Of a stretch of 64,000 nt of DNA, positions 1-34,351 are shown one piece after another. The stretch spans positions 79,042 to 143,041 of the forward strand of contig CAZYLF010000001.1 in the NCBI GenBank assembly GCA_964648765.1, read 5' to 3'. The notes below the pieces were generated by a model. That model ran no database searches. It was given only the letters and a program-made list of their open reading frames with translations, and was not told the origin of the DNA. Made by a program: the position numbers and the translations under genes. Source of the stretch: an uncultured Candidatus Saccharibacteria bacterium (GTDB lineage: Bacteria; Patescibacteriota; Minisyncoccia; Phycocordibacterales; JACOZG01). The first letter of the stretch is position 1. Each line of letters begins with the position of its first letter.

Positions 1-299
1 TTTACTTGCTCTTTTTCCCTTTCTTCTAGGGTCTGAATATATGGGTGGATATCTAATCGTCGTGACTGAATAAAAAATTGCACGTGAAAATCTAGTGAAT
101 TTAAGAAATTTTGGTATTGAGCAAAGATCGCCTGTTGTTCTGGAGCAGATTTGAGGGCAAAATTTAAGGATGAAACCATTAGTATCATCCGCATGCCACC
201 GTCACGCAAAATCACAACCCCATCACGAATTTCATCGATAATTAAAAAATCCTGTGAGGCGCTAGCGCTATTTTGATTTGGTGTACTCGTTGTGGCCAT
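1..299 (-). CDS. N-terminal fragment (gene continues beyond window edge) of a putative VirB4/PrgJ-like conjugative T4SS ATPase
   Basis: ATG at 299-297 (minus) one nt after the PrgI-like stop codon. My reverse-complement translation begins MATTSTPNQNSASASQDFLIIDEIRDGVVILRDGGMRMILMVSSLNFALKSAPEQQ. This resembles, from memory, the N-terminal region of Gram-positive/CPR VirB4-type ATPases. The gene order PrgI-like then ATPase is typical. The CDS is partial. Confidence 0.4.
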   Translation of the reverse strand, partial: MATTSTPNQNSASASQDFLIIDEIRDGVVILRDGGMRMILMVSSLNFALKSAPEQQAIFAQYQNFLNSLDFHVQFFIQSRRLDIHPYIQTLEEREKEQV

Positions 300-300
300 T

Positions 301-705
301 TTATTTTAGATTTTCTTTAATATCCAAGCTCCATGAAAGGTCTCTGAGTTTACTCCCTGATACTTTTGGTAAACTAACACTCGCTTGCTTGGTAGCCTCG
401 ATTAAACTTTGCTCCGAAATTTTCTTTTGCCTCCTTTTCCAAATATAAAGTTTTTTTGTAAAGGCAAAGCGGAATGCCGATTCTGCCATATTTATAAATG
501 GTCGGTTGTTAATTTTATAAAAAGCCAACGCTAGACCAAAACCTACTATCGCAACCATGGGGAAAATTGCAATAATAAACGGAAAGTAAGAGTAAAACAA
601 AAAAGCCGTGCCGAGTGAACCCGCAACATACACAAACTGTTTGAACGTTAAGGGCCCAAATATTTTATCCTCAACTTCAATGAACTGTGGCACCTGAAAA
701 TTCAT
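301..705 (-). CDS. PrgI/VirB3-like small membrane protein (putative T4SS component)
   Basis: 134 aa with two hydrophobic helices (AFLFYSYFPFIIAIFPMVAIVGFGLALAFY). Sits directly upstream of the VirB4-like gene. ATG start verified. Confidence 0.45.
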   Translation of the reverse strand: MNFQVPQFIEVEDKIFGPLTFKQFVYVAGSLGTAFLFYSYFPFIIAIFPMVAIVGFGLALAFYKINNRPFINMAESAFRFAFTKKLYIWKRRQKKISEQSLIEATKQASVSLPKVSGSKLRDLSWSLDIKENLK

Positions 706-785
706 GGCCTAATTTTAGCACATTGTAAAAATTATTTTCCCCAATTAACCCCACCCCACCCTCCCCAAGGGAGAGGGTTCTCAAT

Positions 786-1253
786 TTAAACTTGTTCCAA
801 ATATGGGTCTGGGCCACGCTTTTTGCCATCCAAGTCTACCTCCTCACGTGGAATACGGAAAAGTTGCCCCATCTTTTGTTCAAAGAGGTTTTTACTAGCT
901 TCTCCACTCTCCGGCTTTGGTTCATAAGCCTTTATGTTTGTGGCGGCTTGTTGGATAAGATCTCGGATTTTAATAAAAATTGCCAAATTTACATCGTCGG
1001 CAACAGCGCTAGCCTTCTCCCTCTCTACTCCTAACTCCTTCTCTATTTCTGCTACGTAGTCCTTCATGGCGAGTAAACCAAGCATCACCAAACCAGTGAT
1101 ACTAGCCAACTTGCCTGTTTGCTCAATAGTTAAGCCATTTTTCTTTTCAATCTTCATCATCTCATCGGCAGTTTCTACCGAAAAGATGGCTTCCTGAAGG
1201 GCTTCAGGTAAGGTGTTAAATTTCTCTCTTAATTGTTCTCTTGTGTAATTCAT
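786..1253 (-). CDS. hypothetical protein in the T4SS-like locus
   Basis: 155-aa ORF with ATG start, same strand and tight spacing with neighbours. No recognised motif. Confidence 0.5.
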   Translation of the reverse strand: MNYTREQLREKFNTLPEALQEAIFSVETADEMMKIEKKNGLTIEQTGKLASITGLVMLGLLAMKDYVAEIEKELGVEREKASAVADDVNLAIFIKIRDLIQQAATNIKAYEPKPESGEASKNLFEQKMGQLFRIPREEVDLDGKKRGPDPYLEQV

Positions 1254-1263
1254 ATTTTTTTAT

Positions 1264-3912
1264 TTAGATTCCTGTTCCTCCCGCGGGTACATCAATGCCC
1301 GAAACCGTGTCGGGTGGGGTGCCGGTTGCTCCACCAGCAGTTGCGCTCCCACCCCCACCACCTGGACCTGATGGAATATCTCGCCCTGTTGAGCGCATTA
1401 CATAACCGTAAGCGTCATGACTTTCTCCAACTTGGATAACTCGTTCTTTTACCAATCGTTCTGTTTCCCCAGACAAATTCCCATGCTCAAGAAGTTCTCT
1501 AACCATCTGAGCAGACATGGCCCTAACGACTGCGGGGCTGGTTATTTGTTCGGTCGGCAGTCTCTTTAGAACTTTTGGTTCGTAACCATTTACAACTTTA
1601 TTAATTTCATTTTGATACATTGCTTTAAAGTTGTCTTTATCAACTTGCGGTGCGTCGTCTTTTGGCTCTGCAGAGACGAAACCTGCGAGCTTGCTTCCAA
1701 AGGCTGTCTTAATTTTCTCAAACTCCCCTGATTCCATATCGTTTTCTAAGGCATCGAGGTAGCTGGAATTAAGAAGGTGGGCAATTTTTTCCAGCTTCTT
1801 TTTGTCCAATTTTGTGATTTGTTCTTTCGTAATTGTCTTAAGGAAATCCTTTACCTTTTTTAATTTTTCTTCATCCTCTAGATTATCTAAATCAAGAGCC
1901 TTAAAGTCAGATATCTTCTTATTTAATTTATCCTCTCTCTCGGCGTCTTTGGCATCCTTCTCTTTCTTTTTCTTCTCTGCTAGCTCATCCTTGGTTGGAC
2001 CTAGTACGCCAGACTTAAACCCAAACGGAAGTTCTGCGGTGAGTGTGGCGATATGTTCAGACCCAGTAGAAAGGGGTTTTTTCAGGAACTCACCCACCTC
2101 TTTACCTAAAGGCACATTCTTTTCTCCAAATTTGGCTGTTCTGACTCCCGCCTTCCATGCGGCACCAGCCAATCCTCCCTCACCCTTCTTGTCTTTATTC
2201 CAATTTTCTCCAACTTTCTTTTTCCAATCTTTTAGCGTGCCACTAATTCTTGCCCCACTCTCCCTATTTCGGTCTCTTCCTTCTTTGCTTAGTACGTTTG
2301 CGGCCGTACGAATACCACCTTTACCTAGTTTGGTTAATGTCCCAAAGGCAGTCCTATTCATCTTCCCCGCCCAGCCCACAGCTTTTTGGGCCCCGAAGGC
2401 ACCCATTTGGGAAGCGATGATAAGTGAAGCAATTAGGAAGCCGATCACCACAAAAAATTGAAGCCACACATTCATGGCTGTGTTAGTGCCTTGTGAAAAA
2501 TCAATTCCGCTGATTAATTTTGATGAAACAAAAAGGAAGATGAGGTAAGCGGGCGCAAAGAAGCATTGACTCACTAAGCTCGAGAACCATTTATCAAACT
2601 GACCACTCATTTTCCCTGGCATGGCGAGGGCAAAAAAGGCAAGTGGCGAGAGAATAATTAGAAATACCAAAGTCACAATCCTGATTAGGAGCATTATTGT
2701 GCCCGCTAAGATCACAAAGGTTGAGACCACAATTACAAATATTGCTCCAAGTAACGACGAAATAATTTGAACAAAAGTGCCTTTTACTACCGGGGTGGTG
2801 CTGCCATCTGGGTTGGTTTTTATACCCGTAAACTGCTTTTCAAGGCTTAATCCACTCATTAGCGCTCCAGCCACACCTTTTATACTTTTTGTGCCACCAA
2901 AAATCTTGTATTCTTTGCTGCTAGCATCTATACCATTATAAAATTGATAGGCTAAGAGATTAGAAGCGTCTATTACAACCCTAGTGAAGAAGGCACTGAA
3001 GTTAATAAGTAGAGCAATAACGATTACTCTAACGATGATTTTTTTGGCGTCGATATCCTTTAAGCGGAGAGTCATTCCAATAGCCGCATAAAGGAGGATA
3101 AAGATAAAGAAGATATTGGCCAGATCACGGATAATCGCCCAAGTGCTCTGCATTGAACCAAGGCCGCCAATAGTGTCGGCAAATGAGGTAACAGAGAAGA
3201 ATATCGCCTTGTCAAAAAGAAAAGCTGCACCAACCAAAATGCTACCGAACAGTGGAATGATTATTCCTGTGCTTACATAAATAATCATTGCTTTGGCACA
3301 AGAGATAACATCAAAGTTCAAGTCGAAGGAACACTTTATTTCATCTCTAGTAATGTTGGCGACATTAACAGCTACACTTTTTGTATCTGAGCTTGCTATA
3401 TCGTGAACTGCACCCTGATCTTCATCTGGTGAGGTGTACTGTTCGTCAATTTCTTCTTGGCTCAATCCATTTAATGCGGCGCGCTGTCTTTGAAACCTAT
3501 TTATCTCAGCGTCATATTCAACCATTCTGTTGTTTAATAAGTTTGCCTCCTCAATATTTACATCTCTTCCTCCTGGATTGAGCGTAAGAGCCTGGAACCA
3601 TAGTGGGGTAAATACCTCGCCTGGTATCACTCTTGCTAACTCACCTTGTATCCCCAACATTTTACTTATGCCATTATCTAGCGCTGTTATACTTCTTTGC
3701 TTGTCTGCGTCGTTTGTTGGATTTTGTATCACCTGTGATCGTGTTTCATCAATTGCCGCACGGAAGCGTTCATCTATCTCTGTTACTCGTCTTTGAAAGT
3801 CACCTGATACCTCTGCTTCGGCGGCCCTGAATACAGAAAAAAAAGAAATTAGAACAAAAATTAAACTCAGGAGAAGTTTTTTATTTCCAAATAATTTCTT
3901 TAAAAAGTTCAT
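1264..3912 (-). CDS. VirB6/TrbL-like polytopic membrane protein with signal peptide, coiled-coil and Gly-rich C-terminal tail
   Basis: 882 aa. N-terminal signal/TM, a central block of at least 6 hydrophobic helices, a K/E-rich coiled coil, then a poly-Gly tail (SGPGGGGGSATAGGATG). Sits in a T4SS-like context. AT-rich (about 40% GC). Confidence 0.45.
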   Translation of the reverse strand: MNFLKKLFGNKKLLLSLIFVLISFFSVFRAAEAEVSGDFQRRVTEIDERFRAAIDETRSQVIQNPTNDADKQRSITALDNGISKMLGIQGELARVIPGEVFTPLWFQALTLNPGGRDVNIEEANLLNNRMVEYDAEINRFQRQRAALNGLSQEEIDEQYTSPDEDQGAVHDIASSDTKSVAVNVANITRDEIKCSFDLNFDVISCAKAMIIYVSTGIIIPLFGSILVGAAFLFDKAIFFSVTSFADTIGGLGSMQSTWAIIRDLANIFFIFILLYAAIGMTLRLKDIDAKKIIVRVIVIALLINFSAFFTRVVIDASNLLAYQFYNGIDASSKEYKIFGGTKSIKGVAGALMSGLSLEKQFTGIKTNPDGSTTPVVKGTFVQIISSLLGAIFVIVVSTFVILAGTIMLLIRIVTLVFLIILSPLAFFALAMPGKMSGQFDKWFSSLVSQCFFAPAYLIFLFVSSKLISGIDFSQGTNTAMNVWLQFFVVIGFLIASLIIASQMGAFGAQKAVGWAGKMNRTAFGTLTKLGKGGIRTAANVLSKEGRDRNRESGARISGTLKDWKKKVGENWNKDKKGEGGLAGAAWKAGVRTAKFGEKNVPLGKEVGEFLKKPLSTGSEHIATLTAELPFGFKSGVLGPTKDELAEKKKKEKDAKDAEREDKLNKKISDFKALDLDNLEDEEKLKKVKDFLKTITKEQITKLDKKKLEKIAHLLNSSYLDALENDMESGEFEKIKTAFGSKLAGFVSAEPKDDAPQVDKDNFKAMYQNEINKVVNGYEPKVLKRLPTEQITSPAVVRAMSAQMVRELLEHGNLSGETERLVKERVIQVGESHDAYGYVMRSTGRDIPSGPGGGGGSATAGGATGTPPDTVSGIDVPAGGTGI

Positions 3913-3915
3913 GTT

Positions 3916-6900
3916 TTAATTTGAAAAGGCCGACTCATCAAGTGGCGGGCAGGCGCCTGGCGATGGGCAGTTGTAAGCTGGTGGCTCTGGCGCCAATGTA
4001 CCCTCTGGGTCAGCTAAAAAGTTCTCATTTATTTTACTTTGAACTGGTAAATCACCTTTATTTACATCAAGTCCAAATTTTTGAACGTTCTCCATTTGTC
4101 TAATGATGCTTGTTGTGAGGGCTTCGATCTCGGCTCTTTGGATACTTGGCGGGGTAACACCTTCCACACCCTCAAAGCCCTGACCCCAACCAAGTTTGGT
4201 CATAACATTATTTACCATCTCACTTCTCAATCTCTCTAGTTTTGCTTTCTCCGCTACATATGAACCCACGGCATAATTATTAGGATTACTCGTCATTCTT
4301 CCAAAAAGTTCAAGATCTAATTCGTTTGGAGTTGTTGAAGTTTCTTCTGCACCATCTTCAACTTGGCCAAGTAATCTCTGCCAAAAACTCGGACGTTTCT
4401 TTGCTGTAGCAAAAGCGCTATTGCTCGATTCGGTTTGAGGAATTAAACCAAGCCTGGCGCGCTCTTCAGTTGTTAGGGTGGGTTCATCCGCGTTATCAGC
4501 TTCACTCTCTAGTGCTGAGGCGGTATCTTCAGCAAAAGGCCCGCCCTTTTCTCTTAAGATTTCCAGCATAACATCGGTGGCTTTTTGAATCTCCTCTATT
4601 TTACGAGCAGTGATGTTGTTTGGTGTAAATGAACCCATCTCGCCGTCTTTTATTTCTCTCCCCTCTCTAATAAATTTTAGTTTTTCTTCATAATAATTTC
4701 TTATTGCCGTGGCCGCTGCCTCGCGAGCTTTGCGATCGCCATAAAGCTCCCTCTCTTCCATTGCCAACTGCACGCGTTGGATGACCTTAAGATGGGTACA
4801 AGATTCCACTTGGAGCTGGAGGATCTTACCCGTCATGTCTTTAATGGCATTGTTAGAGGCAAGTATTTCCCCGGTGTTGGCGGCCGTTAAGCCGCTTGAT
4901 ATGAGCACTCCGCCTACTTCGGTGACGGGCACAGATACGGCTGCGGTGGTCACTCCAGCCGCTGAGGCACCGGCGTTTATTGCTTCACCGAAGATTGCTT
5001 CTGAGGCGGCGGTGAAGGCATATTTGACTACCTGTCCGCTAATTAAATCAACAATTGGGTTACCGGTTTTAAGCATGTCGGCTACAACGGTTGAGGCAGC
5101 GCCAGTTGCACTATTAATGATACTTTTTGTGGCCGGTGATAGTGTGGGGGAAGTTTGTTTGCTGATTGCGCCAGTAACTGCTCGTTCAGAGTTTGCGGTA
5201 ACCTGTCCACTCACTGCCCCTGCAGTGTCGGTGGTGACATTGTCCAAAGGCATTACAGAAGGACTGGCAGCGGGATCGCCCAAATTATTTCCACCCGTGG
5301 CGAAGAGGTTCTCGGTGTAATTATTTAAGGTGACTTGTGGTGGCGCGCCAGCGGCTGGTGGTGTGGCCCCGCTCACTGTGCCGTTTGGCATGATTTCTAC
5401 AACACCGCCGGCCGCTAGGGCTTGATTGTAATCACCCTCATACATTTGGCCGGCGGCGAGCGGGGTTGTTCCCCTCAGACTTTCTGGAATTATTTCCACC
5501 GACATTGGTGGATAAAAGAAGTCTTGCACGTTGTTTCCCACTCCTCTGATTCCACCAGCCACCCACTCACCTGCTCCTCCGGCGCCACCAGTAATGTTAA
5601 GAGCTAGTGGATAAAGTCGCCCACCAATTTCCCTATCGATGAGTGTGGTGATCTCTCCGCTCACGTGATCAATAATTGTGTCGGTGGTAGCGTTTACGGC
5701 CCCAACGGCTGCATTAATTTGGAAATCAACTTCGTTGATAATTGGATTTAAAAAGGCTTCGTCCATGTTATCGATTGCTTCTTCCACTGCGGCGATTGGG
5801 CCGGTGAGCGAAGCGGTAATATCTTTCAGACCATCTTGAAGTGAAGCGTTGAGTGGCCCTTCCATGGCGTCAATAATTTGATCACCGAGGCGATTGATGT
5901 TGGCAGGCGCGGTAATTGATTGCTCAAGCTCGAAGGCCAAGTTGGTAATCATGTCCTCTTTGAGTTGATTAATGTCTAGTTGGGCAATCCACTCGATCAT
6001 CTCTTTGGTGATGGTGATTTGATTGCCAATTTCCTCAATCATTAAAGCAAGTTGTTGGAATTCTGGTGGCCCAGTCACGTTACTTCCGTTGAACAACTGA
6101 AGAATGGCGGTAACTCCGTCCAAGGCACAGGAAATTGGATTACTAAAACATTTCTGAATATAGCTTTGTACTGCAGTTAAAGCATCCTTGGTTGATTCAA
6201 GAGTGCCTTGGATTTCTTTAAACCGTTGGTCAAGCATTTGAGGAATTGCCTGTACCATCCCCTCAATCTGGATTCCATATTGCGCCTCCACGATTGGTCG
6301 GGCCAAATCTCTAAAGCTCACGGTTAAGGCGTCGCCAACTGTGCCTTGTAAGCCGTTTCTCACCGCAGTAGAAATACTACGATTGAAGATATCGTCATTG
6401 AAAACTTCGGGTAAGGTGTCGCGAATCGATTCATTAATAAGATTCCGGAAGCGGCCTTGGCCCTCGGGGTCTTCAAAACTACCGTTAAAACCAGAGGCTC
6501 TTAGTGCTTGGATTTTTTGAGCTAGGGTAATTGGGAACTTATCTTTTAGGGCGGTGGTAATGTTTTGGGTAAAGGCGCTACGGAACTCACGTTGAATTGC
6601 CCCGTTGGCATTCACAAATGTCTGCTCCAAAGCATCGGGTGTGCCTTTGAGTGTAACGGCGTCTCTTACTACATCCTCAAATGGTTGTAGAAGTTGTCTA
6701 GAGCTAAAGGCTCCTCCACTTCCCCCTCCACCTCTCCCCTGACTTTCTTCCAAGCACTGGCGTGAGTCGTCGGCTCTTACTTGGCTTAAGGCTTGGTTGG
6801 CATTTTGTTGTTGATATGGTCGAGGAACACCAGGAGCAAAAAAGTTTGGTTGAGCAGGTGGGGTGGCTGGAGTGGTGGGGGTTCCCGGATTAGCTCGAGT

Positions 6901-7068
6901 TACTGGCACGGTGATTGTGCCGCTGGGTCTTGGTGTGCCAAAAGGGGTGCCACCCATGCCGAAACTTCTCTGGGCTTCAGCTTGACTCGGAATTAAAACT
7001 AAAGCTGTTGGCAGGAGCAAGCCAGTTAAGAGTAATCCGGAAGTTAATTTTTTAAATAAATTTTTCAC
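3916..7068 (-). CDS. large secreted Gly/Ala/Thr-rich surface protein (function unknown; possibly a T4SS- or pilus-associated surface factor)
   Basis: 1050 aa. GTG start overlapping the upstream stop (GTGA). Clear signal peptide (LLLTGLLLPTALVLIPSQAEA), then a long low-complexity extracellular region. Confidence 0.55.
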   Translation of the reverse strand: MKNLFKKLTSGLLLTGLLLPTALVLIPSQAEAQRSFGMGGTPFGTPRPSGTITVPVTRANPGTPTTPATPPAQPNFFAPGVPRPYQQQNANQALSQVRADDSRQCLEESQGRGGGGSGGAFSSRQLLQPFEDVVRDAVTLKGTPDALEQTFVNANGAIQREFRSAFTQNITTALKDKFPITLAQKIQALRASGFNGSFEDPEGQGRFRNLINESIRDTLPEVFNDDIFNRSISTAVRNGLQGTVGDALTVSFRDLARPIVEAQYGIQIEGMVQAIPQMLDQRFKEIQGTLESTKDALTAVQSYIQKCFSNPISCALDGVTAILQLFNGSNVTGPPEFQQLALMIEEIGNQITITKEMIEWIAQLDINQLKEDMITNLAFELEQSITAPANINRLGDQIIDAMEGPLNASLQDGLKDITASLTGPIAAVEEAIDNMDEAFLNPIINEVDFQINAAVGAVNATTDTIIDHVSGEITTLIDREIGGRLYPLALNITGGAGGAGEWVAGGIRGVGNNVQDFFYPPMSVEIIPESLRGTTPLAAGQMYEGDYNQALAAGGVVEIMPNGTVSGATPPAAGAPPQVTLNNYTENLFATGGNNLGDPAASPSVMPLDNVTTDTAGAVSGQVTANSERAVTGAISKQTSPTLSPATKSIINSATGAASTVVADMLKTGNPIVDLISGQVVKYAFTAASEAIFGEAINAGASAAGVTTAAVSVPVTEVGGVLISSGLTAANTGEILASNNAIKDMTGKILQLQVESCTHLKVIQRVQLAMEERELYGDRKAREAAATAIRNYYEEKLKFIREGREIKDGEMGSFTPNNITARKIEEIQKATDVMLEILREKGGPFAEDTASALESEADNADEPTLTTEERARLGLIPQTESSNSAFATAKKRPSFWQRLLGQVEDGAEETSTTPNELDLELFGRMTSNPNNYAVGSYVAEKAKLERLRSEMVNNVMTKLGWGQGFEGVEGVTPPSIQRAEIEALTTSIIRQMENVQKFGLDVNKGDLPVQSKINENFLADPEGTLAPEPPAYNCPSPGACPPLDESAFSN

Positions 7069-7928
7069 AATCCAAATGTAAGGTTTAGTTTTTTATCTTT
7101 ATTGAAAGCAAAACCTTGACCTGTAAAATATAAGTTCAAAATATTTATCGAGGAAAGAAAGTTTTGGAGATTGTCCCCGTATTTATTTACTGCGCCCAAT
7201 GCCAAGGCTGGCTCCTTCTCTACTAGCGACATCATAAAACTAGCTTCTCCTAGTTTTATTAAAGCGTTTAATAAATTAAGGTGAATTTTTTCTGCTCCTC
7301 TCGGTACCTCAAGTTTGATAAGCGAGGCAATTACTTGATTGTGGGCATTATTAATTTCCTCAATTTTCTCCACGTTTTCTTTTTTGCCTTGATCGATAAT
7401 TTCGAGAGTCAGCTTTGCTTCATTGATACCCTTTAACTCGTCGTATGTTCTCATTGCTGTTTGGATTTGCTCCCCGTACAACAAGATAAATTCTCTGGTT
7501 GGAGATTCTTTAATTTTAAGATCAGACTCAACTATGATTGGCGCAATTCTTGCCGCAGAACCCCCCGAAATTAAGGGGGAATTTTTGGAGTCACTAGCCG
7601 TGCGTGCCATGGCTAACAAGCGCTCAGTGGGATTACTTACCTTATCGTTTGGCCCGGCCACAATTGGACTTCTCCCCACCAACACTTCTGCTCCGTCATC
7701 TGCTCCGTCGCCATCCGTATCTTTATTTAGAGGATTGCTTCCCCAAAATTCTTCTTCCCAATCGGCTAAGTTGTCGGCGTCACGATCAACGGCGTCTTTT
7801 TTTATTAACTCCCCTTGTTTGTTATTTGCCGCTGCTTGATAATTTACTGGTTCTTGTCCGCCGAGAAAATAAATAAAGCCAACAAAAATTATCACCATCA
7901 GCAACAAAACGATGAATGCCTTTTTCAT
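7065..7928 (-). CDS. N-terminally membrane-anchored protein with one TSP3-like Ca-binding motif
   Basis: ATG at 7928 follows a GTG. TM segment AFIVLLLMVIIFVGFIYFL. Contains the motif DTDGDGADDGAE. First gene of the minus-strand locus. Confidence 0.5.
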   Translation of the reverse strand: MKKAFIVLLLMVIIFVGFIYFLGGQEPVNYQAAANNKQGELIKKDAVDRDADNLADWEEEFWGSNPLNKDTDGDGADDGAEVLVGRSPIVAGPNDKVSNPTERLLAMARTASDSKNSPLISGGSAARIAPIIVESDLKIKESPTREFILLYGEQIQTAMRTYDELKGINEAKLTLEIIDQGKKENVEKIEEINNAHNQVIASLIKLEVPRGAEKIHLNLLNALIKLGEASFMMSLVEKEPALALGAVNKYGDNLQNFLSSINILNLYFTGQGFAFNKDKKLNLTFGL

Positions 7929-7952
7929 CACTACTTATTATAGTATAATTAA

Positions 7953-8621
7953 ATGCATATGACGAAGTGGATTACTCTAACTATCATTATCTCTATTTTT
8001 TTATTTTCTAATTTTGCATTTGCTCAAAATTCTGACCCTTTTATTTCTCAAGTAAGTTCTCTTTTGCAAACTATTCGTAACTTGGCCAGCCAAATTGGTG
8101 CCTTAGAAAATGCGCCCGTCTTACCTCAAAATCCTTTACCGGCGCCACTTACCCCCGCCCCCATTTCATCGCCAGTTACCCCCTTAACCACCGGCTCATA
8201 CTTTCGAAGATCAGAAACTTCATATTTTGACCAAGTTAGGGCCAACCAAGCACAAAAAATGTCTGTTTACGCAAGCACCACTCAATTAACTACCTCACTT
8301 TTACCCACAATTTCACTAGTTAGTCCTGATTCCGGAAAAATCGGCACAAGAATCACCCTAAAAGGCCAAAATTTTACCAAAACTGGCAACATCGTCTACA
8401 CTGGGTTTGGTTATTTGAGCTTAGGCTCTGTGGACGGTCAGACTTTATCCTTCACAATCACTCGCCCCCCATCATTGCCGGCTGGATTTGAGGCTCAGGC
8501 ACAAGGTTTTTGGAACGAAAATTACGAGGGGGTGGTGCGGCCAGGCTTACCACTTGGCTTTTATGTTAAAAACCCTAACGGCCAGACGGCTAAGCCTGGT
8601 CTATTCTTCCTTAACTTCTAG
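7953..8621 (+). CDS. secreted protein with an IPT/TIG-like beta-sandwich segment
   Basis: Signal peptide (ITLTIIISIFLFSNFAFA). Segment SLVSPDSGKIGTRITLKGQNFTKTGNIVYTG resembles IPT/TIG. Confidence 0.45.
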   Translation: MHMTKWITLTIIISIFLFSNFAFAQNSDPFISQVSSLLQTIRNLASQIGALENAPVLPQNPLPAPLTPAPISSPVTPLTTGSYFRRSETSYFDQVRANQAQKMSVYASTTQLTTSLLPTISLVSPDSGKIGTRITLKGQNFTKTGNIVYTGFGYLSLGSVDGQTLSFTITRPPSLPAGFEAQAQGFWNENYEGVVRPGLPLGFYVKNPNGQTAKPGLFFLNF

Positions 8622-8625
8622 TTTT

Positions 8626-8997
8626 ATGGCCATTTTTAAATTAAAAATTAATTATTTGGCAGTTTTAATGGCTATAACGCTTATTTTAGGCGCTTTGGGT
8701 TTAAAAAGCGAAAAGACTCAAGCCCAGGCGGTATTGCCAATTGGTGGCCCCATTGTGGCTGTTTATTATTGTTGCAATGGGGTAATGCTTACCTTGGGCG
8801 CTCCAACTCCGGGTACATATATGTATTATTGGGGTACACCACTCTTTGCTCATTATAATGTCTGGGAACCTGGGCCTTATGTGCTTGGCCGTGGTGGCAC
8901 TCCTGGTGTTTGCAGTATCCCAACCGCCTTCCCCCCGTGTGCTTATGTTACTGCTACCACCGGCTTCTTTACCATGGTTGGTACGTCGGGCCTCTAG
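8626..8997 (+). CDS. small secreted/membrane Cys-rich protein
   Basis: In-frame ATG at 8626 inside the track ORF 8488..8997. Gives a 123-aa protein with a signal/TM segment and 7 Cys. The upstream part of the track ORF overlaps the preceding gene. Confidence 0.4.
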   Translation: MAIFKLKINYLAVLMAITLILGALGLKSEKTQAQAVLPIGGPIVAVYYCCNGVMLTLGAPTPGTYMYYWGTPLFAHYNVWEPGPYVLGRGGTPGVCSIPTAFPPCAYVTATTGFFTMVGTSGL

Positions 8998-9434
8998 TGA
9001 AACTTTAAAACGTCACCGACAGAGATATTTTGACGGGTGGTGTAACCAGCGTTTACTTCAAGTACATAAGACACAGGCGCGGGCGCCATGAAGATTTTAG
9101 GATAAGTTTCTGGCCCCACACTCTTTTCAATCCCTAACACTTTATAATTTTCATCAAGCCAAATAATGTCGAGCGCGAAGTTCATGTCCTTCATCCAGAA
9201 GCCGGTAAGTTCTGGCGGAGAAAAGATGAAAAGCATTCCTTCATCTTTACCTAAACTCTCTCTGCCACTTAAACCTAGATTTTGTTCTGCTTGCGTTCTT
9301 ACTTCTTCAATTTTTAAATTTAAAATTTTTTCGCTTACGTTGATAACTTTCACCTCACTTTTTTTATAAAGAAAAAACAAAGAGAAAATAATTACCACGA
9401 CCAATATAATAATTAAATATTTTCTGCGAGACAT
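8994..9434 (-). CDS. DUF192 family protein (COG1430)
   Basis: Signal/TM, then LFIFSPPELTGFWMKDMNFALDIIWLDENYKVLGIE, typical of DUF192. Track start is TTG; ATG at 9434. Confidence 0.7.
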   Translation of the reverse strand: MSRRKYLIIILVVVIIFSLFFLYKKSEVKVINVSEKILNLKIEEVRTQAEQNLGLSGRESLGKDEGMLFIFSPPELTGFWMKDMNFALDIIWLDENYKVLGIEKSVGPETYPKIFMAPAPVSYVLEVNAGYTTRQNISVGDVLKFH

Positions 9435-10159
9435 AACCAATCATTTAATGATAACTCTTCTGCTCTCTTTTTTAAATCTAAATCGGTGTGTGAAGGATCG
9501 ATAGTTAACAAATTATTTTTAAGTTGTTTACGCTTGTGAGCAAAACCTTGATGAATAATTTCAAAAAACTTTTTCTCATGCTCTTTGCTCTTAAAATTAT
9601 TTCTATTTATATTCTTGATAGAAATTACCGCAGAATCAACTTTAGGCGCGGGATTAAATGATCCGGCCTTCACGATAAATTCCTTTTTCGGTTCACCGTA
9701 AACTTTTACACTTAAAGAAAGTAAACTTTCTTTTTTATCGTGTGCCACAATTCTATCCACTACTTCCTTTTGTAAAAGTAAGGTCATGGACTGCGGCTGA
9801 TTTTCACCCGATAAAAATTTTCGTAAAATTTCTCCAGAAATATAATACGGAATATTGGCTACAATCTTAAAATTTTTCTCCGAAAAATTAAGATCCAATA
9901 TGTCTCCCTCAATTATTTTTAATTTCTTGTTTGAAATTTCTTTTGCAAACTTTTCTTCAAGCGGCGCAATTAAACGATTGTCTTTTTCTACCGCAATAAC
10001 ATTCGCGCCGGTGGCGAGAATTACTTCCGTGAGCGTGCCGAGACCGGGGCCGATTTCTAAAACTATGTCCCCTGCTTTTACTTCCGACACAGTCACAATC
10101 TTTTTTAAGATCGCCGGATCAGAGAGAAAGTTTTGGCCTAAAGATTTTTTAGCTAACAT
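9413..10159 (-). CDS. rsmA: 16S rRNA (adenine1518/1519-N6)-dimethyltransferase
   Basis: SLGQNFLSDPAILKKIV ... LEIGPGLGTLT SAM motif. Canonical KsgA/RsmA. Confidence 0.9.
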   Translation of the reverse strand: MLAKKSLGQNFLSDPAILKKIVTVSEVKAGDIVLEIGPGLGTLTEVILATGANVIAVEKDNRLIAPLEEKFAKEISNKKLKIIEGDILDLNFSEKNFKIVANIPYYISGEILRKFLSGENQPQSMTLLLQKEVVDRIVAHDKKESLLSLSVKVYGEPKKEFIVKAGSFNPAPKVDSAVISIKNINRNNFKSKEHEKKFFEIIHQGFAHKRKQLKNNLLTIDPSHTDLDLKKRAEELSLNDWLCLAENI

Positions 10160-10162
10160 AAA

Positions 10163-12100
10163 TTAAAAGTCGATTAACCAACCTGATTGTTTTTTATCTA
10201 ACTCTGCTTCATTTAAATCTGCTAAAAATTCTGACGGTAAACGTGGCTGAAGGCTACCAAATATTGTCCTGGCTTCAGCGTAGCATAAATATAATTTTTT
10301 CCTCGCGCGCGTGATCGCCACATAAAATAATCTGCGCTCCTCCTCATTATCCCTTTCAGATTCCTCGCCCATTCTTGGTGCCGATGGAAATAAATCTTGC
10401 TCCAAGCCCATCACAAAAACGTAATCAAATTCTAAACCTTTGGCCGCGTGCACGGTCATAAGGCGCACGCCACCGCCATCTTTAATTGTGTCTTGATCAG
10501 CAATTAATGCGGTGTCGGTGAGCATTTGTTCTAGTCCCTCGCCGAGAGGGAAGATGTCATAACGCTTGGCGAGAGTTACTAATTCCTTAATGTTTTCCAA
10601 CCGCTCTTTATCTTGCTCATCTTTAGATTCAGCTAATTGATCCCCTAACCCAGATCGTTTCACGATGAGTTTAATAAGCTCTGAGGGCAACTCTTTTTCT
10701 CCCGCGTTTTTAATCTCTGTTTGTAATTTACGAAAGTTCTCAACTTTAATTTGCGTAGCTTTTGGCAAAGTGCTGGCAAGTCCAGAAAATATTTTAGCAA
10801 TTGTGGCTTTACCAATTCCGCGCGGTGGCACATTGATCACACGCTTGGTACTCTCAATATCTTCCGGATTTAGCGAACATTTAAGTAAACTTAAAACATC
10901 TTTAATTTCTTGTCGGTCGAAAAATCTTGTGCCCACCACTTGATACGGCGTGCGATTATTTATCAACGCTTCTTCAATTGCTCGCGATTGATAATTGGCG
11001 CGATAAAGTACACCAATATTTTTCGCTTGCGCTTGTTCGCTCTGAATTAACTTTTCAATTGCTTCAGCCACGAGCCCGGCCTCCTCATTTTCATCCATAC
11101 CTACGATCAGCGCAATTTCTTCCCCACCTTTTTTACGAGTAAATAAATTTTTCTCTTTCCGTTTTTTATTTTTAGCGATTACGGAATTGGCGAAGTCGAG
11201 GATTACCTGCGTGCTCCGATAATTTTCTTCAAGTGTTACCACTTTGGCTTCCGGATAATCTTCTTCAAATCTTAAAATATTTGTGAAGTCGGCACCGCGC
11301 CAACTGTAAATAGATTGATCCACGTCACCAACCACACAAATATTTCTGCGCTCGCCAGCGAGCAATTTAGAGAGTGCATATTGCACAGCGTTTGTGTCTT
11401 GGTATTCATCAATGTGGATGTACTGCCAACGCTCTTGATAAATTTTTAAACGCTCCGGATTATCGCGCAAGAGTAAAGTAGCTTTTAATAATAAATCGTC
11501 GAAGTCGAGAGAGTGGCTCGCCTTCTTTAAACTTTCATATTTCTTCCACGCCTCAACCACGAGATTAATGAAGAACTCATTGGAACCTTGCGCGTAGGTT
11601 AAATATTCGTCGGGGCCGCGCATTAAGTTTTTCTGTTTCGAAATAGTGCTAGAAATTTTTTGCGGCAAACCGTTATCAATTGGCGCGCCGCCTTCCTTGA
11701 GCGCTTGTTTAATTAACTTCACCGATTCGTCCTTATCAATAATTTGGAAGAATTTCGGTAAATTAAAATATGCCAGATTTTCTTTAATCAATCTCACGCC
11801 GAGCGCATGAAACGTACTAACCCAGGGCCTCCCGCCAGAGGCGGGTAAATTTGCCCACATACTGTTTCCGCTTTCTTCCATTAAGCCCCTGAGACGCTCC
11901 CCCATTTCCTTGGCTGCTTTGTTGGTAAAAGTGATGGCCATAATACTCTCCGGTGCCACCCCATTTTTAATTAAATGAAAAATCCGATGAGTGATCGTTT
12001 TGGTTTTGCCTGCGCCCGCACCCGCCACAATCAAAAGCGGTCCTCGCTCGTGCAAGACCGCTTCCTTTTGCGCCTCATTGAGACCCGCCAAATAATCCAT
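10163..12100 (-). CDS. uvrD: UvrD/PcrA-family ATP-dependent DNA helicase
   Basis: Walker A GAGAGKTKTITHRI, plus UvrD motifs (VVGDVDQSIYSWRGAD, TVHAAKGLEFDYVFV). Confidence 0.9.
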   Translation of the reverse strand: MDYLAGLNEAQKEAVLHERGPLLIVAGAGAGKTKTITHRIFHLIKNGVAPESIMAITFTNKAAKEMGERLRGLMEESGNSMWANLPASGGRPWVSTFHALGVRLIKENLAYFNLPKFFQIIDKDESVKLIKQALKEGGAPIDNGLPQKISSTISKQKNLMRGPDEYLTYAQGSNEFFINLVVEAWKKYESLKKASHSLDFDDLLLKATLLLRDNPERLKIYQERWQYIHIDEYQDTNAVQYALSKLLAGERRNICVVGDVDQSIYSWRGADFTNILRFEEDYPEAKVVTLEENYRSTQVILDFANSVIAKNKKRKEKNLFTRKKGGEEIALIVGMDENEEAGLVAEAIEKLIQSEQAQAKNIGVLYRANYQSRAIEEALINNRTPYQVVGTRFFDRQEIKDVLSLLKCSLNPEDIESTKRVINVPPRGIGKATIAKIFSGLASTLPKATQIKVENFRKLQTEIKNAGEKELPSELIKLIVKRSGLGDQLAESKDEQDKERLENIKELVTLAKRYDIFPLGEGLEQMLTDTALIADQDTIKDGGGVRLMTVHAAKGLEFDYVFVMGLEQDLFPSAPRMGEESERDNEEERRLFYVAITRARKKLYLCYAEARTIFGSLQPRLPSEFLADLNEAELDKKQSGWLIDF

Positions 12101-12385: not shown

Positions 12386-13291
12386 TTGCCCTTGGCTCGG
12401 GCCAACACCACTCCACTCTCTAGTACTGGGGTGGTTTTAAATTCACAAAATGTTCCGCTTGTTGGAACTTCCGGCACTAGCAACCAGCTCCCTTTCCGCG
12501 GTGGCGGTGACATTACAATTTTGGACGACAGCGCCTTGATGCCAGAGTCACCACTCTCTTTACTTGCCTCAGAGGCCTCGGAAGTGGCAGCTGGCAAAGG
12601 CGACATTAGTATTTATGTGGTACGCGAAGGAGATTCGCTCTCGGGGATTGCTCAAATGTTTGATGTTTCCGTTAACACAATTGTGTGGGCCAACGACATT
12701 CCTCGTGCCACCGCTATTTACGAGGGTCAGGTGCTGGTGATTTTGCCAGTTTCTGGGCTTAAGTATGAGGTGAAGAAGGGCGACACTCTTGCCTCCCTCG
12801 CTAAGCGTTACCATGGCGATTTGGAGGAAATTGCCCAGTTTAATGATCTTGACCCAAATGGCGCGCTCGCTGTGGGTACCGAGATTATTATCCCTGACGG
12901 TGAGATGGTGGCTGTGGAAGGAAGTAGTGGTCCGGCCCCGGTTTTTGTGGACTTCTTTATGAGGCCAATTAAGGTGGGTAAAAAGACCCAAGGAATCCAT
13001 GGTTACAACGGTGTGGATATTGGCGCTCCAACTGGCACACCAGTCCTCGCCTCCGCGGCTGGCACGGTGATGGTGAGCCGAAGTGGTGGTTGGAACGGCG
13101 GTTACGGCAACTTTATTGTGATCAAACATAGCAATGGCACCCAGACTTTGTATGCGCACAATAGTGAGAATTTGGTAAAAGTGGGTGCCAAGGTGGTGCA
13201 GGGTCAGGTGATTGGTTATGTGGGTTCAACTGGTAAATCCACAGGGCCTCACCTCCACTTTGAGGTTCGTGGAGCAAAGAACCCGTTTTAA
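12386..13291 (+). CDS. LysM-domain M23 family metallopeptidase
   Basis: Two LysM-like repeats (YVVREGDSLSGIAQMF, YEVKKGDTLASLAKRY). M23 motifs GVDIGAPTGTPVLAS ... HLHFEVR. Track start is TTG; first in-frame ATG is at 12539, so start is uncertain. Confidence 0.8.
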   Translation: MPLARANTTPLSSTGVVLNSQNVPLVGTSGTSNQLPFRGGGDITILDDSALMPESPLSLLASEASEVAAGKGDISIYVVREGDSLSGIAQMFDVSVNTIVWANDIPRATAIYEGQVLVILPVSGLKYEVKKGDTLASLAKRYHGDLEEIAQFNDLDPNGALAVGTEIIIPDGEMVAVEGSSGPAPVFVDFFMRPIKVGKKTQGIHGYNGVDIGAPTGTPVLASAAGTVMVSRSGGWNGGYGNFIVIKHSNGTQTLYAHNSENLVKVGAKVVQGQVIGYVGSTGKSTGPHLHFEVRGAKNPF

Positions 13292-22220: not shown

Positions 22221-23102
22221 ATGAGTTTATCTAAACTAAAAAATGAGTTTTTGGAGTATTTGGAGATTGAGAAGGGGCGGAGTTTGAAAACGGTGGCTAA
22301 TTATGACCGTTATCTGCTGCGCTTTTTTGAATTTAGCCAAGTTAAGGAGCCAAAATCGCTCGATGATGAGATGTTGCGCAAATATCGCCTGTGGCTCAAT
22401 CGCCTGCCAGCACCCGAAGGCAACCTTAAAAAAAATACCCAAAATTATCACTTAATTGCCTTGCGGTCCTTCTTAAAATACTTAACCAAACGTGGTGTAA
22501 CCACGGCGCTCTCCTCTACTGACATTGAGCTAGCTAAAACTGGTGAGCGAGAACTTGATTTAATTGAGCCAGACGAGCTCGATCGCCTGCTGGCCGCGCC
22601 TAAAAGTAAGGATGTATGGGCTTTGCGCGATAAAGCGTTGCTCGAGCTCCTCTTCTCTACTGGTTTGCGCGTGTCTGAACTTGTGGCTTTAAATCGCGAC
22701 AGTATAGATATGAAGCGTGATGATTTCTCTATTAGAGGTAAGGGCGGCAAGGTGCGCGTGGTCTTCCTCTCCCCCCTCGCAAAAGATACAATCCAACAAT
22801 ATTTAAATAAACGCGATGATCCTGAAGAACCGCTTTTTGTGAGTCAAAAACTAACCAGATTAACCGCGCGGAGCATTGAGCGCTTGATAAAACAGTATGC
22901 GATCAAGGCTGGGATAACGCGCAAGGTCACGCCGCACGTGATTCGTCACAGTTTTGCCACAGATTTGCTCCGTAATGGTGCTGATTTACGTTCGGTGCAA
23001 ATGATGCTTGGGCACGCCAATATCTCAACCACTCAAGTGTACACTCACGTTACCGATCGCGAACTCAAACGCATCCACGACAAATTCCATAGGAGGAAAT
23101 AA
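22221..23102 (+). CDS. xerC: tyrosine site-specific recombinase, XerC/XerD family
   Basis: GLRVSELVALNRDSID ... HVIRHSFATDLLRNGADLRSVQMMLGHANISTTQVYTHV, including the R-H-R-Y catalytic residues. Confidence 0.85.
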   Translation: MSLSKLKNEFLEYLEIEKGRSLKTVANYDRYLLRFFEFSQVKEPKSLDDEMLRKYRLWLNRLPAPEGNLKKNTQNYHLIALRSFLKYLTKRGVTTALSSTDIELAKTGERELDLIEPDELDRLLAAPKSKDVWALRDKALLELLFSTGLRVSELVALNRDSIDMKRDDFSIRGKGGKVRVVFLSPLAKDTIQQYLNKRDDPEEPLFVSQKLTRLTARSIERLIKQYAIKAGITRKVTPHVIRHSFATDLLRNGADLRSVQMMLGHANISTTQVYTHVTDRELKRIHDKFHRRK

Positions 23103-27505: not shown

Positions 27506-27658
27506 TATTCGCCTCCTTTTTTTGAAGTTGTTTAAGATCAATCTAACAACCCCTATTATAACCTTTTATAAAATTTTGTCAATGAATAAAAAAGAGCGCT
27601 TCGAAGTTAATCGAAGCGCTCTGTGCTGCACTGCAAACTGCAAAGAACAAATGAGCTT

Positions 27659-29254
27659 TTATCCTCCTTCATCAATTGCTGAAGCTAGCTCTTGCTTCAG
27701 ATTATTGAACCACTCCTTCCGAGGAAGGTTGGTGTTAATCCATACCACCTTTTTGGTTGCCGCATCAGTGATTGTTACTTCAGGATTTGAACCTGCAACG
27801 AAGTCACTACGCGTTTTATCTGTATAAGTGACGATGGTGGTTAACCACATAAAACGCACCACCCCGTCAATTAACTTAATGAAAGGTCGGTGTTCGGCTG
27901 GGTAATTTTGATCCCAGTCGTTAAAAGCCCGACTTCCCATTACGCTGGCACCAATAGTGCTTACCCCCGGCAGCGCCTCGTTGCGCTTGGCGTGAGAGTA
28001 AGTAAAGATTGGACCAATACCATCCGCAGGGTAGAAGACAGAGGCGTTATGCCCCTGATTCGCCTTTGTGTATGGTTCAAGTGAGAAATAATGATACAAC
28101 TTATTTTCACCCCCGCCTTCTTTCAAAAAACGAAAGTAGATGGTGAAGGGCTGTTCGTTATAATCACCTTCTAAGTCAGGGATTCGCACATCGCCTTGGT
28201 GTGAACCAGGGAAGGGTGCAAAAAATCCTGACTGAAAACGGAAACTCTCAGCTGCGTACCGGCTCACATCGTATGGTATGAGTGGCTGGCCGCGCAGGTA
28301 GGAGTGGTTGGCCACCTCTTCTGGTGGAATCCACTCCCCATCACCAATCATCATGAGTTTGAGCCAATGCAACAGCCCGCCCTCACTTTGACGTATCACT
28401 TGCACACCGCCGAATTCCGGTCGAGGGAAAAGTATTCCCTTCCAGCGTACTAGTGACACAACTTCTACCCACTCACCCTTATCATCCTTGATGTATTTAA
28501 CATCACTCGGACTGTATGACAGGAACCGAAACGGATTTAAGAATGAGCGGATAGTGCTAATTTTTACGTTCTTCCCAAGGAGTAGATTCTCACCAACGGC
28601 AAATGATACCGGTGTGCGATTCTTACTTGAGAAGTCTGGTGATGCCGCTTCGCCGGGGAGACTGAGCACTCCTTTCACGTTCTCTATGAGTCGTGGAAAG
28701 AAGTACGAAGGTTCTATCCCCATTGTAAACCGATAGCTATCACCAACCCTAACGTAATAGGGTTCTGAAACTTGATGCACATCCTGCATCCCACCCCTCA
28801 GGGATTGAACCCTAATGGAGTGTAGAGGCTGGATTCGATCATGCTCTGTCACCGGTAGCTCCTCTAGCTCCCGGAGGTCAAGTGTTTTGTAACGCCAGTA
28901 CAAGGTTAAGTACTTGTGAGGTGAAGCGCCAATGTAGCGATAATTAACCGCCATCAGCACCAACACTCCCAAAATTATTAACCACTTTTTCCGACTGATT
29001 CTGTGGTGGTAGTGATAGATCAAAGCAATGGAAGTAACCGCAACGATCACTTCAAAGCTATAGATCCTTACCGCTAGAAACAGTGGCTGTACCCACGCTC
29101 TGGCAAGCAGAGCAAGGAAGAGTGCAACTCCCAATAAAAGGAGGAAGCGTCCTCGATGCTCTTGCCAAAGATTTTTTGCCCAAAGTAGGAAGTTTCTGAA
29201 AATCCAGTACAACCTGCCATGAGCAACCTTTATTTCTGCTTCTGAAGAGGTCAC
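27659..29254 (-). CDS. membrane protein with 3 N-terminal TM helices and about 400-aa extracytoplasmic domain
   Basis: GTG start with GAGGAGG SD, abutting the upstream stop. No recognised family. Confidence 0.5.
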   Translation of the reverse strand: MTSSEAEIKVAHGRLYWIFRNFLLWAKNLWQEHRGRFLLLLGVALFLALLARAWVQPLFLAVRIYSFEVIVAVTSIALIYHYHHRISRKKWLIILGVLVLMAVNYRYIGASPHKYLTLYWRYKTLDLRELEELPVTEHDRIQPLHSIRVQSLRGGMQDVHQVSEPYYVRVGDSYRFTMGIEPSYFFPRLIENVKGVLSLPGEAASPDFSSKNRTPVSFAVGENLLLGKNVKISTIRSFLNPFRFLSYSPSDVKYIKDDKGEWVEVVSLVRWKGILFPRPEFGGVQVIRQSEGGLLHWLKLMMIGDGEWIPPEEVANHSYLRGQPLIPYDVSRYAAESFRFQSGFFAPFPGSHQGDVRIPDLEGDYNEQPFTIYFRFLKEGGGENKLYHYFSLEPYTKANQGHNASVFYPADGIGPIFTYSHAKRNEALPGVSTIGASVMGSRAFNDWDQNYPAEHRPFIKLIDGVVRFMWLTTIVTYTDKTRSDFVAGSNPEVTITDAATKKVVWINTNLPRKEWFNNLKQELASAIDEGG

Positions 29255-29896
29255 TTAGGCCTCCTCTCGTTTGTTCCTTGTGCCAAGAAAGTCCGCCATC
29301 AAGTCTTCCGGCGAGGCGTTCTCGGTGACCACTGGTGGAGCCGGCGCTTCTTGGGGATTTTCTTTTTGAACATTACTACTCGTGCCTTCCACGCGGAGTG
29401 AATGCTCATACTCAAATATCCAAGTGATAAAGCGGTTCCACTGGTTCTTAACCCACGAGCTGCTGCGCTCGTATTGCCTTTGACCCGACTTTACGAGGTC
29501 GTAATCGCCAGCATTGAAACGCTTCTCATAATCTCCAATGACCTCAAACACATTTACTCGTCTCCCCCACAAACGGAGGAAGATTGGCCCAGTGAGAAAC
29601 CCGAAGGCAATCACCAGGATTCCAAAGAGCCAAATGAAGAAGCCGTTAAGCATCCCCACCTCAGAGAAGATCGAAATAAGAAGAATGAATTTTGTCGAGA
29701 GGATAGTGGCCGTCATAAAACGAAAACTCACCGGCCTCTGACAAATAAACCCTTTCTCACTCGTCTTCGCTAGACCCTCAGTGCTGATTCCGCACCACCA
29801 GTTGTACCACTTTACGCCCCTCTTTCGATCCAGAGCGTAAAGGGTCCAAGCCACGCCAAGATATATAATCATCCAGACTATCAATGCACCGTTCAT
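29255..29896 (-). CDS. polytopic membrane protein
   Basis: ATG at 29896 overlaps the upstream TGA (ATGA coupling). Four or five hydrophobic helices. Confidence 0.5.
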   Translation of the reverse strand: MNGALIVWMIIYLGVAWTLYALDRKRGVKWYNWWCGISTEGLAKTSEKGFICQRPVSFRFMTATILSTKFILLISIFSEVGMLNGFFIWLFGILVIAFGFLTGPIFLRLWGRRVNVFEVIGDYEKRFNAGDYDLVKSGQRQYERSSSWVKNQWNRFITWIFEYEHSLRVEGTSSNVQKENPQEAPAPPVVTENASPEDLMADFLGTRNKREEA

Positions 29897-34254: not shown

Positions 34255-34286
34255 CGATATTCTCCTTTTTTGTTTGGGTAGTAAGA

Positions 34287-34321
34287 CAAAAAAAGGGAGG
34301 GGAGCATAACACACCCCTCCC
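34287..34321 (-). terminator. intrinsic terminator between the coiled-coil gene and the AAA operon
   Basis: Minus strand reads gggaggggtgtgttatgctcccctccc followed by ttttttt. It is immediately followed by the SD/ATG of the next gene. Confidence 0.6.
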
Positions 34322-34351
34322 CGTAAGTTTTACTTCCCGCCAACTAGACCG

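Follow-up and report, generated by a model that had tools for sequence, protein, structure and literature searches.

The window analysed here is a stretch of 64,000 nucleotides of contig CAZYLF010000001.1, and it opens inside a gene cluster that we interpret as a type IV secretion system (T4SS) of the kind found in Patescibacteria. The minus strand of window positions 1-7931 holds six open reading frames (ORFs), which ORF calling placed exactly where an earlier note, made from the sequence alone, had put them. The genes are tightly spaced (a 4-nt overlap, then gaps of 3, 10, 80 and 1 nt), so the arrangement is operon-like. In the order of transcription, the window contains:

7065-7931, minus strand: p288, 288 aa, with an N-terminal anchor and a TSP3-type repeat; first gene of the operon
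3916-7068, minus strand: p1050, 1050 aa, Sec-secreted and mostly helical; a T4SS-linked component
1264-3912, minus strand: extended VirB6/TrbL-like protein, 882 aa, a polytopic membrane protein with a Gly-rich tail
786-1253, minus strand: p155, 155 aa, cytoplasmic, with a C-terminal DPYxE peptide
301-705, minus strand: PrgI/VirB3-type protein, 134 aa, a small membrane protein
1-299, minus strand: TrsD-like protein, 221 aa when complete; the window edge leaves its first 99 codons

The last ORF starts at position 299, one base past the stop codon at 301-303, and its product reads MATTST...IIDEIRDGVVILRDGGMRMILMVSSLNFALKS... An exact-sequence look-up of the 134-aa protein found a public 84-kb contig (L001) that overlaps window positions 1-10705 with 100% identity across 10,705 bases and continues beyond the window start. 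Past that point L001 encodes, in the direction of transcription, the 221-aa ORF, a 605-aa ORF, and genes for proteins of 128, 231, 102 and 413 aa:

L001 10407-11072: TrsD-like protein, complete, 221 aa
L001 11080-12897: VirB4, 605 aa, 7 nt downstream of the TrsD-like ORF
L001, after VirB4: p128, a 128-aa membrane protein
L001, next: p231, a 231-aa secreted Ig-like protein
L001 13981-14289: VirB2-like pilin, a 102-aa two-helix protein
L001, last operon gene: p413, a 413-aa membrane-anchored TolB-like beta-propeller

The 413-aa gene is followed by yidC and rnpA on the other strand, and then by dnaA and dnaN. The locus is an 11-gene operon of ~12.8 kb, ordered p288, p1050, extended VirB6, p155, PrgI/VirB3, TrsD, VirB4, p128, Ig-like p231, VirB2-like pilin and TolB-like p413, and window positions 1-7931 are its promoter-proximal ~60% (five and a half genes). 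It is ~1.2 kb from dnaA and therefore lies beside the presumed replication origin.

Searching the GTDB species genomes with an alignment of VirB6 brought up 467 relatives. In the best 80 of these 467 loci, ORFs were called and each operon protein was searched for with iterative hidden Markov models; counts given below refer to the 42 loci with sufficient flanking sequence. Nearly all of the best 80 come from metagenome-assembled genomes titled as Patescibacteria or Paceibacteria types (Vogel-, Taylor-, Zambryski-, Wolfe-, Campbellbacteria etc.), and a few are short contigs binned under other taxa; apart from those few, the named relatives of VirB6 and p155 are likewise Patescibacteria/Paceibacteria assemblies. 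The gene order from p288 to p413 is collinear almost everywhere in these 80 loci. Nine of the eleven genes occur in 41-42 of the 42 loci, p1050 in 38 and p128 in 36.

Core components of the secretion system

The 605-aa protein is a VirB4 ATPase. It scores 358.1 bits against the NCBIfam model conju_CD1110 (cut-off 325, E 9.6e-107), its Walker A (AQSGAGKS) and Walker B (LLVVDE) motifs are intact, and the cluster of proteins at 90% identity to which it belongs contains one annotated as Patescibacteria. There is also a weak, partial NCBIfam match to CedB (3.9e-9). The earlier note expected a VirB4 ATPase in the upstream continuation, and one is encoded there, 7 nt past the cut ORF.

The cut ORF itself had been likened to VirB4-type ATPases. 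It is homologous to the N-terminal domain of VirB4, but it encodes a separate 221-aa protein. NCBIfam places it at the N-termini of VirB4_plasma (1.4e-9) and CD1110 (3.5e-6), with a TrsD match as well (1.2e-4); none of the three reaches its full-length cut-off, and the alignment covers only the N-terminal ~100-130 residues of the VirB4 models (CD1110 residues 11-112). A Pfam TraC-like annotation is on record for this protein. It is a stand-alone TrsD-type homologue of the VirB4 N-terminal domain and not the ATPase. Of the 65 loci encoding TrsD as well as VirB4, every one has them as two distinct genes, and since all three relative frames occur, a frameshift artefact does not explain the split.

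The 134-aa protein belongs to the PrgI/VirB3 family, as had been proposed (Pfam PF12666, 34.3 bits, cut-off 27). It has two adjacent hydrophobic helices (transmembrane (TM) residues 30-61), is present in all 42 loci, and may by analogy with other T4SSs be the membrane anchor of VirB4.

The 102-aa protein falls just short of PF18895 (26.2 bits, cut-off 26.6, E 8.7e-6) and matches the Mbov_0395 pilin-like family (1.4e-6). PF18895 is matched by 14 of 15 members of its family (best E 1.2e-11). The family has the VirB2/TrbC architecture and occurs in 41 of the 42 loci, and the protein is a VirB2-like pilin. The ORF starts directly after the upstream stop codon and is without the hydrophobic leader that most homologues carry before a conserved LLEP motif; its start may be mis-set, or the leader may be unusually short.

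The 882-aa protein has a signal peptide, an extracytoplasmic helical domain (~38-190), a TM core (~200-525), a cytoplasmic helical domain (~640-775) and a Gly/Pro-rich tail that ends in PSGPGGGGGSATAGG... The protein alone has no Pfam match at E<=1, VirB6/TrbL PF04610 included, and a profile of its family matched only coiled-coil proteins among PDB sequences, via the charged tail. TrbL/VirB6 is matched by 23 of its 42 homologues. The TM core is confident in the AlphaFold model, and the eight best Foldseek matches to the PDB are all R388 TrwI/VirB6; the core has the fold of TrwI/VirB6 and DotA at an identity of only 9-17%. Because the homologues match TrbL/VirB6 and the fold is that of TrwI/VirB6, the protein is a VirB6, which upholds the earlier assignment. 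The VirB6 is of the extended type: its domain outside the membrane has ~170 aa and the part inside ~350 aa.

The T4SS-type membrane apparatus proposed in the note is thus present. Equivalents of VirB5, VirB8, VirB1 and PrgF were sought with hhalign, by comparing family profiles with the single sequences of pCF10 PrgC-PcfC and of Ti VirB1-11/VirD4. In this insensitive comparison only expected pairs came out on top, at low probability (TrsD against the VirB4 N-terminus, 29%; PrgI against PrgI, 23%).

Conservation, origin and neighbourhood of the locus

The operon occupies the same chromosomal slot in 42 of 42 flanked loci; Paceibacteria genomes with the cluster at this site number in the dozens. 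Where relatives were inspected, it is flanked by uvrD, ksgA and DUF192 on one side and by yidC, rnpA and dnaA on the other, and the gene order is the same in L003, L005, L010 and L011. The proximity to dnaA, dnaN, rnpA and ksgA that is typical of Paceibacteria is found here and also in L003, L005 and L011. The position between ksgA/DUF192 and yidC-rnpA-dnaA indicates long-standing vertical inheritance. Protein identities to the closest relative (L003) and to L005 are:

VirB4: 96% in L003, 86% in L005
DnaA: 95% in L003, not available for L005
YidC: 93% in L003, 46% in L005
KsgA: 77% in L003, 51% in L005
p1050: 35% in L003, 26% in L005
Ig-like p231: 39% in L003, 25% in L005
TolB-like p413: 39% in L003, 34% in L005

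VirB4 is more conserved than the housekeeping genes and the exposed proteins share 25-40%, so the motor is more constrained and the surface parts diversify fast. The excess identity of VirB4 points to one of two causes, a very strongly constrained motor or exchange of virB4 between relatives by recombination.

The earlier note took the locus as consistent with a horizontally acquired conjugative or competence-like apparatus; a rival reading along these lines is a recently acquired conjugative or integrative element, an integrative and conjugative element (ICE) or plasmid remnant whose T4SS moves its own DNA. The components are homologous to Gram-positive conjugation machinery, including a CD1110-family VirB4, PrgI, and a relative of the Mbov_0395 pilin-like protein of Mycoplasma ICEs. 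The first 3.9 kb had been noted as AT-rich, and this is numerically right, with a GC content of 41.4% at positions 1-3912 and 44.7% in the window. The dip is marginal: it is at the 5th percentile of equal-sized sub-windows, some 1-kb blocks elsewhere drop further (33.6% at 9-10 kb, 37.2% at 58-59 kb), and the full span 1-7931 matches the background (43.9%, against 44.9% in the rest of the window). A tyrosine recombinase is encoded at 22221-23102, but at 14 kb it is the nearest one and does not flank the cluster. We looked for relaxase (MOB) and VirD4/TcpA-type coupling protein genes, as the note had suggested doing by upstream extension, using the Pfam annotations already on record for every gene called in the window and its 10-kb extension (~74 kb) and comparing ten large unannotated ORFs with NCBIfam; neither was found in this ~74 kb. 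Most components diverge in step with the neighbouring housekeeping genes, and the chromosomal position and housekeeping neighbours are shared by dozens of genomes. A horizontally acquired conjugative locus is therefore not supported, and a recently acquired element is largely refuted and very improbable.

Upstream of p288 lies a pair of genes in the opposite orientation:

7932-7952, no strand: divergent intergenic spacer, 21 nt, between p288 and the oppositely oriented TIG-domain gene
7953-8621, plus strand: IPT/TIG-domain secreted protein, 222 aa (Pfam TIG, 25.2 bits, cut-off 20.9)
8626-8997, plus strand: Cys-rich secreted protein, 123 aa, second gene of the divergent pair

Gene calling on the identical contig L001 recovers both as well. 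At this position the TIG gene occurs in 18 and the Cys-rich gene in 23 of the 42 loci, and the pair (7953-8997) may be an optional T4SS accessory of uncertain membership. Promoter-like hexamers lie across the spacer on both strands (minus, 7965-7937, TCGTCA-17-TATAAT; plus, 7922-7949, TTTTCA-16-TATAAT). Overall, the promoter scan gave about as many sites as chance would (16, with 15 expected), so these hexamers have positional plausibility only, and the terminator scan is also at chance level overall.

Further along the window, ksgA is at 9413-10159, and a protein with LysM and Peptidase_M23 domains is encoded at 12386-13291 (plus strand), upstream of uvrD. The latter is kept in L003 and L005. 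Some Patescibacteria VirB1 homologues carry LysM and M23 domains (PMC12102498), which makes this protein a candidate to be the wall hydrolase of the T4SS. L011 has a phage-lysozyme-like gene beside the cluster in place of the LysM/M23 gene. A run of large genes without family occupies ~27600-35700 on the minus strand (531, 237, 418 [DUF6638], 688 [AAA ATPase], 395 and 449 aa), close to the tyrosine recombinase, and could be a defence or mobile island apparently unrelated to the T4SS. A 318-aa protein (38469-39425, plus strand) has a weak TraB/PrgY/GumN family match on record. The window contains six tRNA genes at 37.7-44.2 kb, and the sign of the GC skew flips at about 38 kb and 52 kb, tracking gene orientation.

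Surface and adaptor proteins

The p1050 protein has a Sec signal peptide (...PSQAEA/QR) and matches no family in curated libraries, where the earlier description of it as having no recognisable family holds. Outside those libraries it does have relatives: an exhaustive HMMER search found 41 representatives, 13 of them below 1e-30, and all that were inspected are in the same T4SS slot. A word-indexed homology search returned only the protein itself, an index artefact given these 41. Syntenic homologues are 35% identical over the full length in the closest relative and 26% in the second (pairwise BLAST), and two distant relatives (23-25% identity) also lie between p288-like and VirB6-like genes. 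The 68 family members range from 267 to 1402 aa. A C-terminal module of ~300 residues with conserved cysteines is common to most of them, and only about one in four has the N-terminal ~700 residues, which consist of amphipathic helices. These comparisons place p1050 in a family that evolves quickly and appears to be restricted to its position in the T4SS cluster.

The AlphaFold2 model of p1050 is poor (predicted local distance difference test 58, predicted template modelling score 0.35), and a Foldseek search of the PDB gave nothing with E<0.08. An alpha-pore-forming toxin was considered as an identity for p1050 and rejected, as Foldseek probabilities below 0.25 are no evidence. Pfam scans of the p1050 and p155 families gave generic helical-repeat matches or nothing.

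The p288 protein is present in all 42 loci and has one hydrophobic segment (residues 5-23), a TSP3-type repeat of the calcium-binding type (DADNLADWEEEFWGSNPLNKDTDGDGADDGAE) and a conserved helical C-terminal domain; Y152, P210 and H217 are invariant in the family. The TSP3 motif that had been reported is weak in the protein alone (TSP3_bac PF18884, E 0.013, below the cut-off) and clear in the family consensus (DxDxDGLKDWEE...DTDGDG). The family profile also matches the Ca-binding repeats of a biofilm surface protein in the PDB (7e-5).

The p155 protein, likewise in all 42 loci, has a helical N-terminal domain, no TM segment and no match in Pfam or the PDB; its homologues are found in Patescibacteria only. 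It ends in a DPYxE peptide, here DPYLEQV. D149, P150, Y151 and E153 are invariant, and the motif is mostly DPYREP, within the last ~8 residues of family members. Of 5,624 ORFs from 85 loci, 70 have a C-terminal DPYxE and 67 of these are p155 family members. A general C-terminal secretion signal was considered for DPYxE and rejected, since within the sampled loci the motif belongs to the p155 family (67/70). One VirB6 (L086 9320-12187) ends in DPYNE. We consider p155 a likely docking or adaptor subunit.

Between p155 and prgI is the sole sizeable gap of the operon, 80 nt at 706-785 (minus strand), with a GC-rich hairpin CCCUCUCCC-UUG-GGGAGGGUG whose stability is no greater than that of shuffled sequence (z 0.17). 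In L003 the same gap (12842-13039) contains a 65-aa ORF of the 23S_rRNA_IVP family (PF05635).

The p231 family is Ig-like and the p413 family is an anchored TolB-like beta-propeller. With p288, p1050, p155 and p128 they bring the operon to 11 conserved genes, beyond the five that are recognisable, and so provide a list of candidate extracellular and adaptor subunits.

Function and relation to known systems

We put a probability of about 0.9 on the locus being a Patescibacteria-type T4SS, a derivative of the monoderm MPF-FATA (a mating-pair formation class) conjugation machinery, in a Paceibacteria-like bacterium of the candidate phyla radiation; this value concerns the identity of the system and not the direction of transport. 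Such systems were described in 2023-2025, and the locus is a typical member. Quinonero-Coronel et al. 2025 surveyed 3,035 Patescibacteria genomes (PMC12102498), and described a monophyletic Patescibacteria VirB4 clade nested in MPF-FATA, with TrsD, PrgI/VirB3, VirB6 and VirB2-like pilins near VirB4, relaxases almost never present and coupling proteins rarely adjacent. They place the Paceibacteria cluster near dnaA, dnaN, rnpA and ksgA. Wang et al. 2023 (PMC10633639) showed that a Saccharibacterium cannot grow as an epibiont without the homologous cluster, which has pilins and lacks coupling protein and relaxase. Few machines are known to be indispensable to the epibiotic lifestyle of these ultra-small bacteria, and the Patescibacteria T4SS is one of them.

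Several points weigh against this reading or parts of it. The TrsD and pilin copies here score just under curated cut-offs, and VirB8-like and VirB1-like components were not identified in the operon. The roles we give to p288, p1050, p155, p128 and the Ig-like and TolB-like proteins are read only from location signals, domains and conserved synteny. VirD4-like genes are present elsewhere in many Patescibacteria genomes, as reported in PMC12102498. The role of the Patescibacteria T4SS has been called ‘completely unknown’ (PMC11665869).

By analogy with R388 and pCF10, VirB4 would be anchored by PrgI/VirB3, assisted by TrsD, and would power assembly at the VirB6 platform, where the VirB2-like pilin may polymerise into a pilus or conduit. 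The p288, p1050, Ig-like and TolB-like proteins would build or decorate the extracellular, wall-spanning, host-facing part, and p155 could dock at the cytoplasmic face via its DPYxE tail.

Conjugation is an unlikely function. We favour a host-contact translocon that would be needed for an epibiotic lifestyle. Effector delivery and the import of nucleic acids from the host are both discussed in reviews (PMC12857230, PMC11665869), and a preprint reports tubular structures, possible T4SS pili, at the parasite-host interface and feeding on host RNA (bioRxiv 10.64898/2026.06.21.733656). For the translocon, import of host macromolecules such as nucleic acids is a tentative suggestion, put at somewhat under even odds; it is favoured because ComB and Ced, T4SS derivatives that are free of coupling protein and relaxase, are importers. 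By this analogy import would be somewhat likelier than protein export or pure adhesion, an inferred ranking and not a result.

Export is the somewhat less probable case: the T4SS would inject or release proteins, such as p1050 or effectors encoded elsewhere, with which the host bacterium is manipulated or lysed. Saccharibacteria have been proposed to deliver effectors (PMC11665869; PMC10633639) and most non-conjugative T4SSs are protein exporters, but export by a T4SS nearly always requires a coupling protein, and none is linked in the window and the 10 kb beyond it. Several proteins of the operon are Sec-secreted and fast-evolving; their Sec signals mean that they need no T4SS to leave the cytoplasm. 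The model of p1050 is weakly, non-significantly similar to alpha-helical pore-forming toxins, and the cluster contains no effector-like enzymatic domains.

An organelle mainly for adhesion or pilus assembly, in which a VirB2-type pilus and surface complex hold the epibiont on its host and no substrate is translocated, seems unlikely to us. Attachment and motility of Patescibacteria are already accomplished via type IV pili (PMC12857230), and the extended VirB6 with its large cytoplasmic domain, together with the cytoplasmic adaptor p155, suggests substrate handling. In keeping with an adhesive role are the retention of the VirB2-like pilin in 41 of 42 loci, the Ig-like, TIG, TSP3 and TolB-like surface domains, which are typical of adhesion modules, and the tubular structures in the preprint cited above.

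Within the favoured translocon, the six unannotated genes (p288, p1050, p155, p128, Ig-like and TolB-like) might form a lineage-specific host-facing module, in which the C-terminal module of p1050 would be a stalk, tip or host-membrane-engaging element and its hypervariable N-terminal helices would set host specificity. The p1050 gene immediately precedes virB6, the place that virB5 takes in classical operons. We regard the whole proposal as rather doubtful. If it were true, the conservation contrast (VirB4 86-96%, exposed parts 25-40%) would mark an arms race at the epibiont-host interface. Categorically the locus is nothing new; it is a clean and complete Paceibacteria example, and the residual interest is in the six further conserved unannotated genes, p1050 included, and in the asymmetric divergence of motor and surface.

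Among diderm systems, R388 Trw and Agrobacterium VirB (MPF-T) and Legionella Dot/Icm share features with the locus. The TM core of the 882-aa protein has the TrwI/VirB6 and DotA fold, albeit at 9-17% identity, and the pilin has the VirB2/TrbC architecture. Those systems have VirB5 and VirB7-11, unlike the locus, and the VirB6 here is extended.

ComB of Helicobacter pylori and the archaeal Ced system (CedA/CedB) resemble the locus in being minimal sets of a VirB4-type ATPase and a polytopic VirB6-like protein with no linked relaxase or coupling protein, and the VirB4 here has its weak partial match (3.9e-9) to CedB. ComB differs in having the diderm VirB7-10 core, and Ced in lacking PrgI, TrsD and a pilin and in working with type IV pili. 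Both are importers, and their likeness to the Patescibacteria T4SS is compositional only.

The monoderm MPF-FATA systems (Prg/Pcf of pCF10, with PrgH-PrgI-PrgJ; Trs of pGO1/pSK41, with TrsC-TrsD-TrsE) share several features with the locus, which has a CD1110-family VirB4 above the cut-off, a PrgI-family VirB3 and no outer-membrane core components. As in pGO1, a separate TrsD-like protein is encoded upstream of VirB4. MPF-FATA systems own a relaxase, a VirD4 coupling protein, a PrgK-type hydrolase, the VirB8-like PrgL and LPXTG adhesins, none of which was detected here, whereas they are without the VirB2 pilin that is present here. The unrecognised genes of the operon had no match among pCF10 proteins in the insensitive hhalign profile comparison.

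The closest likeness is to the Patescibacteria T4SS itself. Points of difference are that in this operon virB4 is not directly followed by a gene for a lysozyme or peptidase, and that there is one pilin gene where Saccharimonadia have pilin arrays. The p288, p1050, p155, p128, Ig-like and TolB-like proteins are not named as T4SS components in sections 12-15 of PMC12102498; in that paper, genes without a profile hit are coloured grey. As described in that survey and for the cluster SEML1_0006-0019 of Southlakia epibionticum (PMC10633639), the Patescibacteria T4SS has the composition seen here, with VirB4, a stand-alone TrsD, PrgI/VirB3, VirB6 and a VirB2-like pilin, and with no relaxase or coupling protein nearby; it is chromosomal, and in Paceibacteria (PMC12102498) it sits, as this operon does, beside dnaA, dnaN, rnpA and ksgA.

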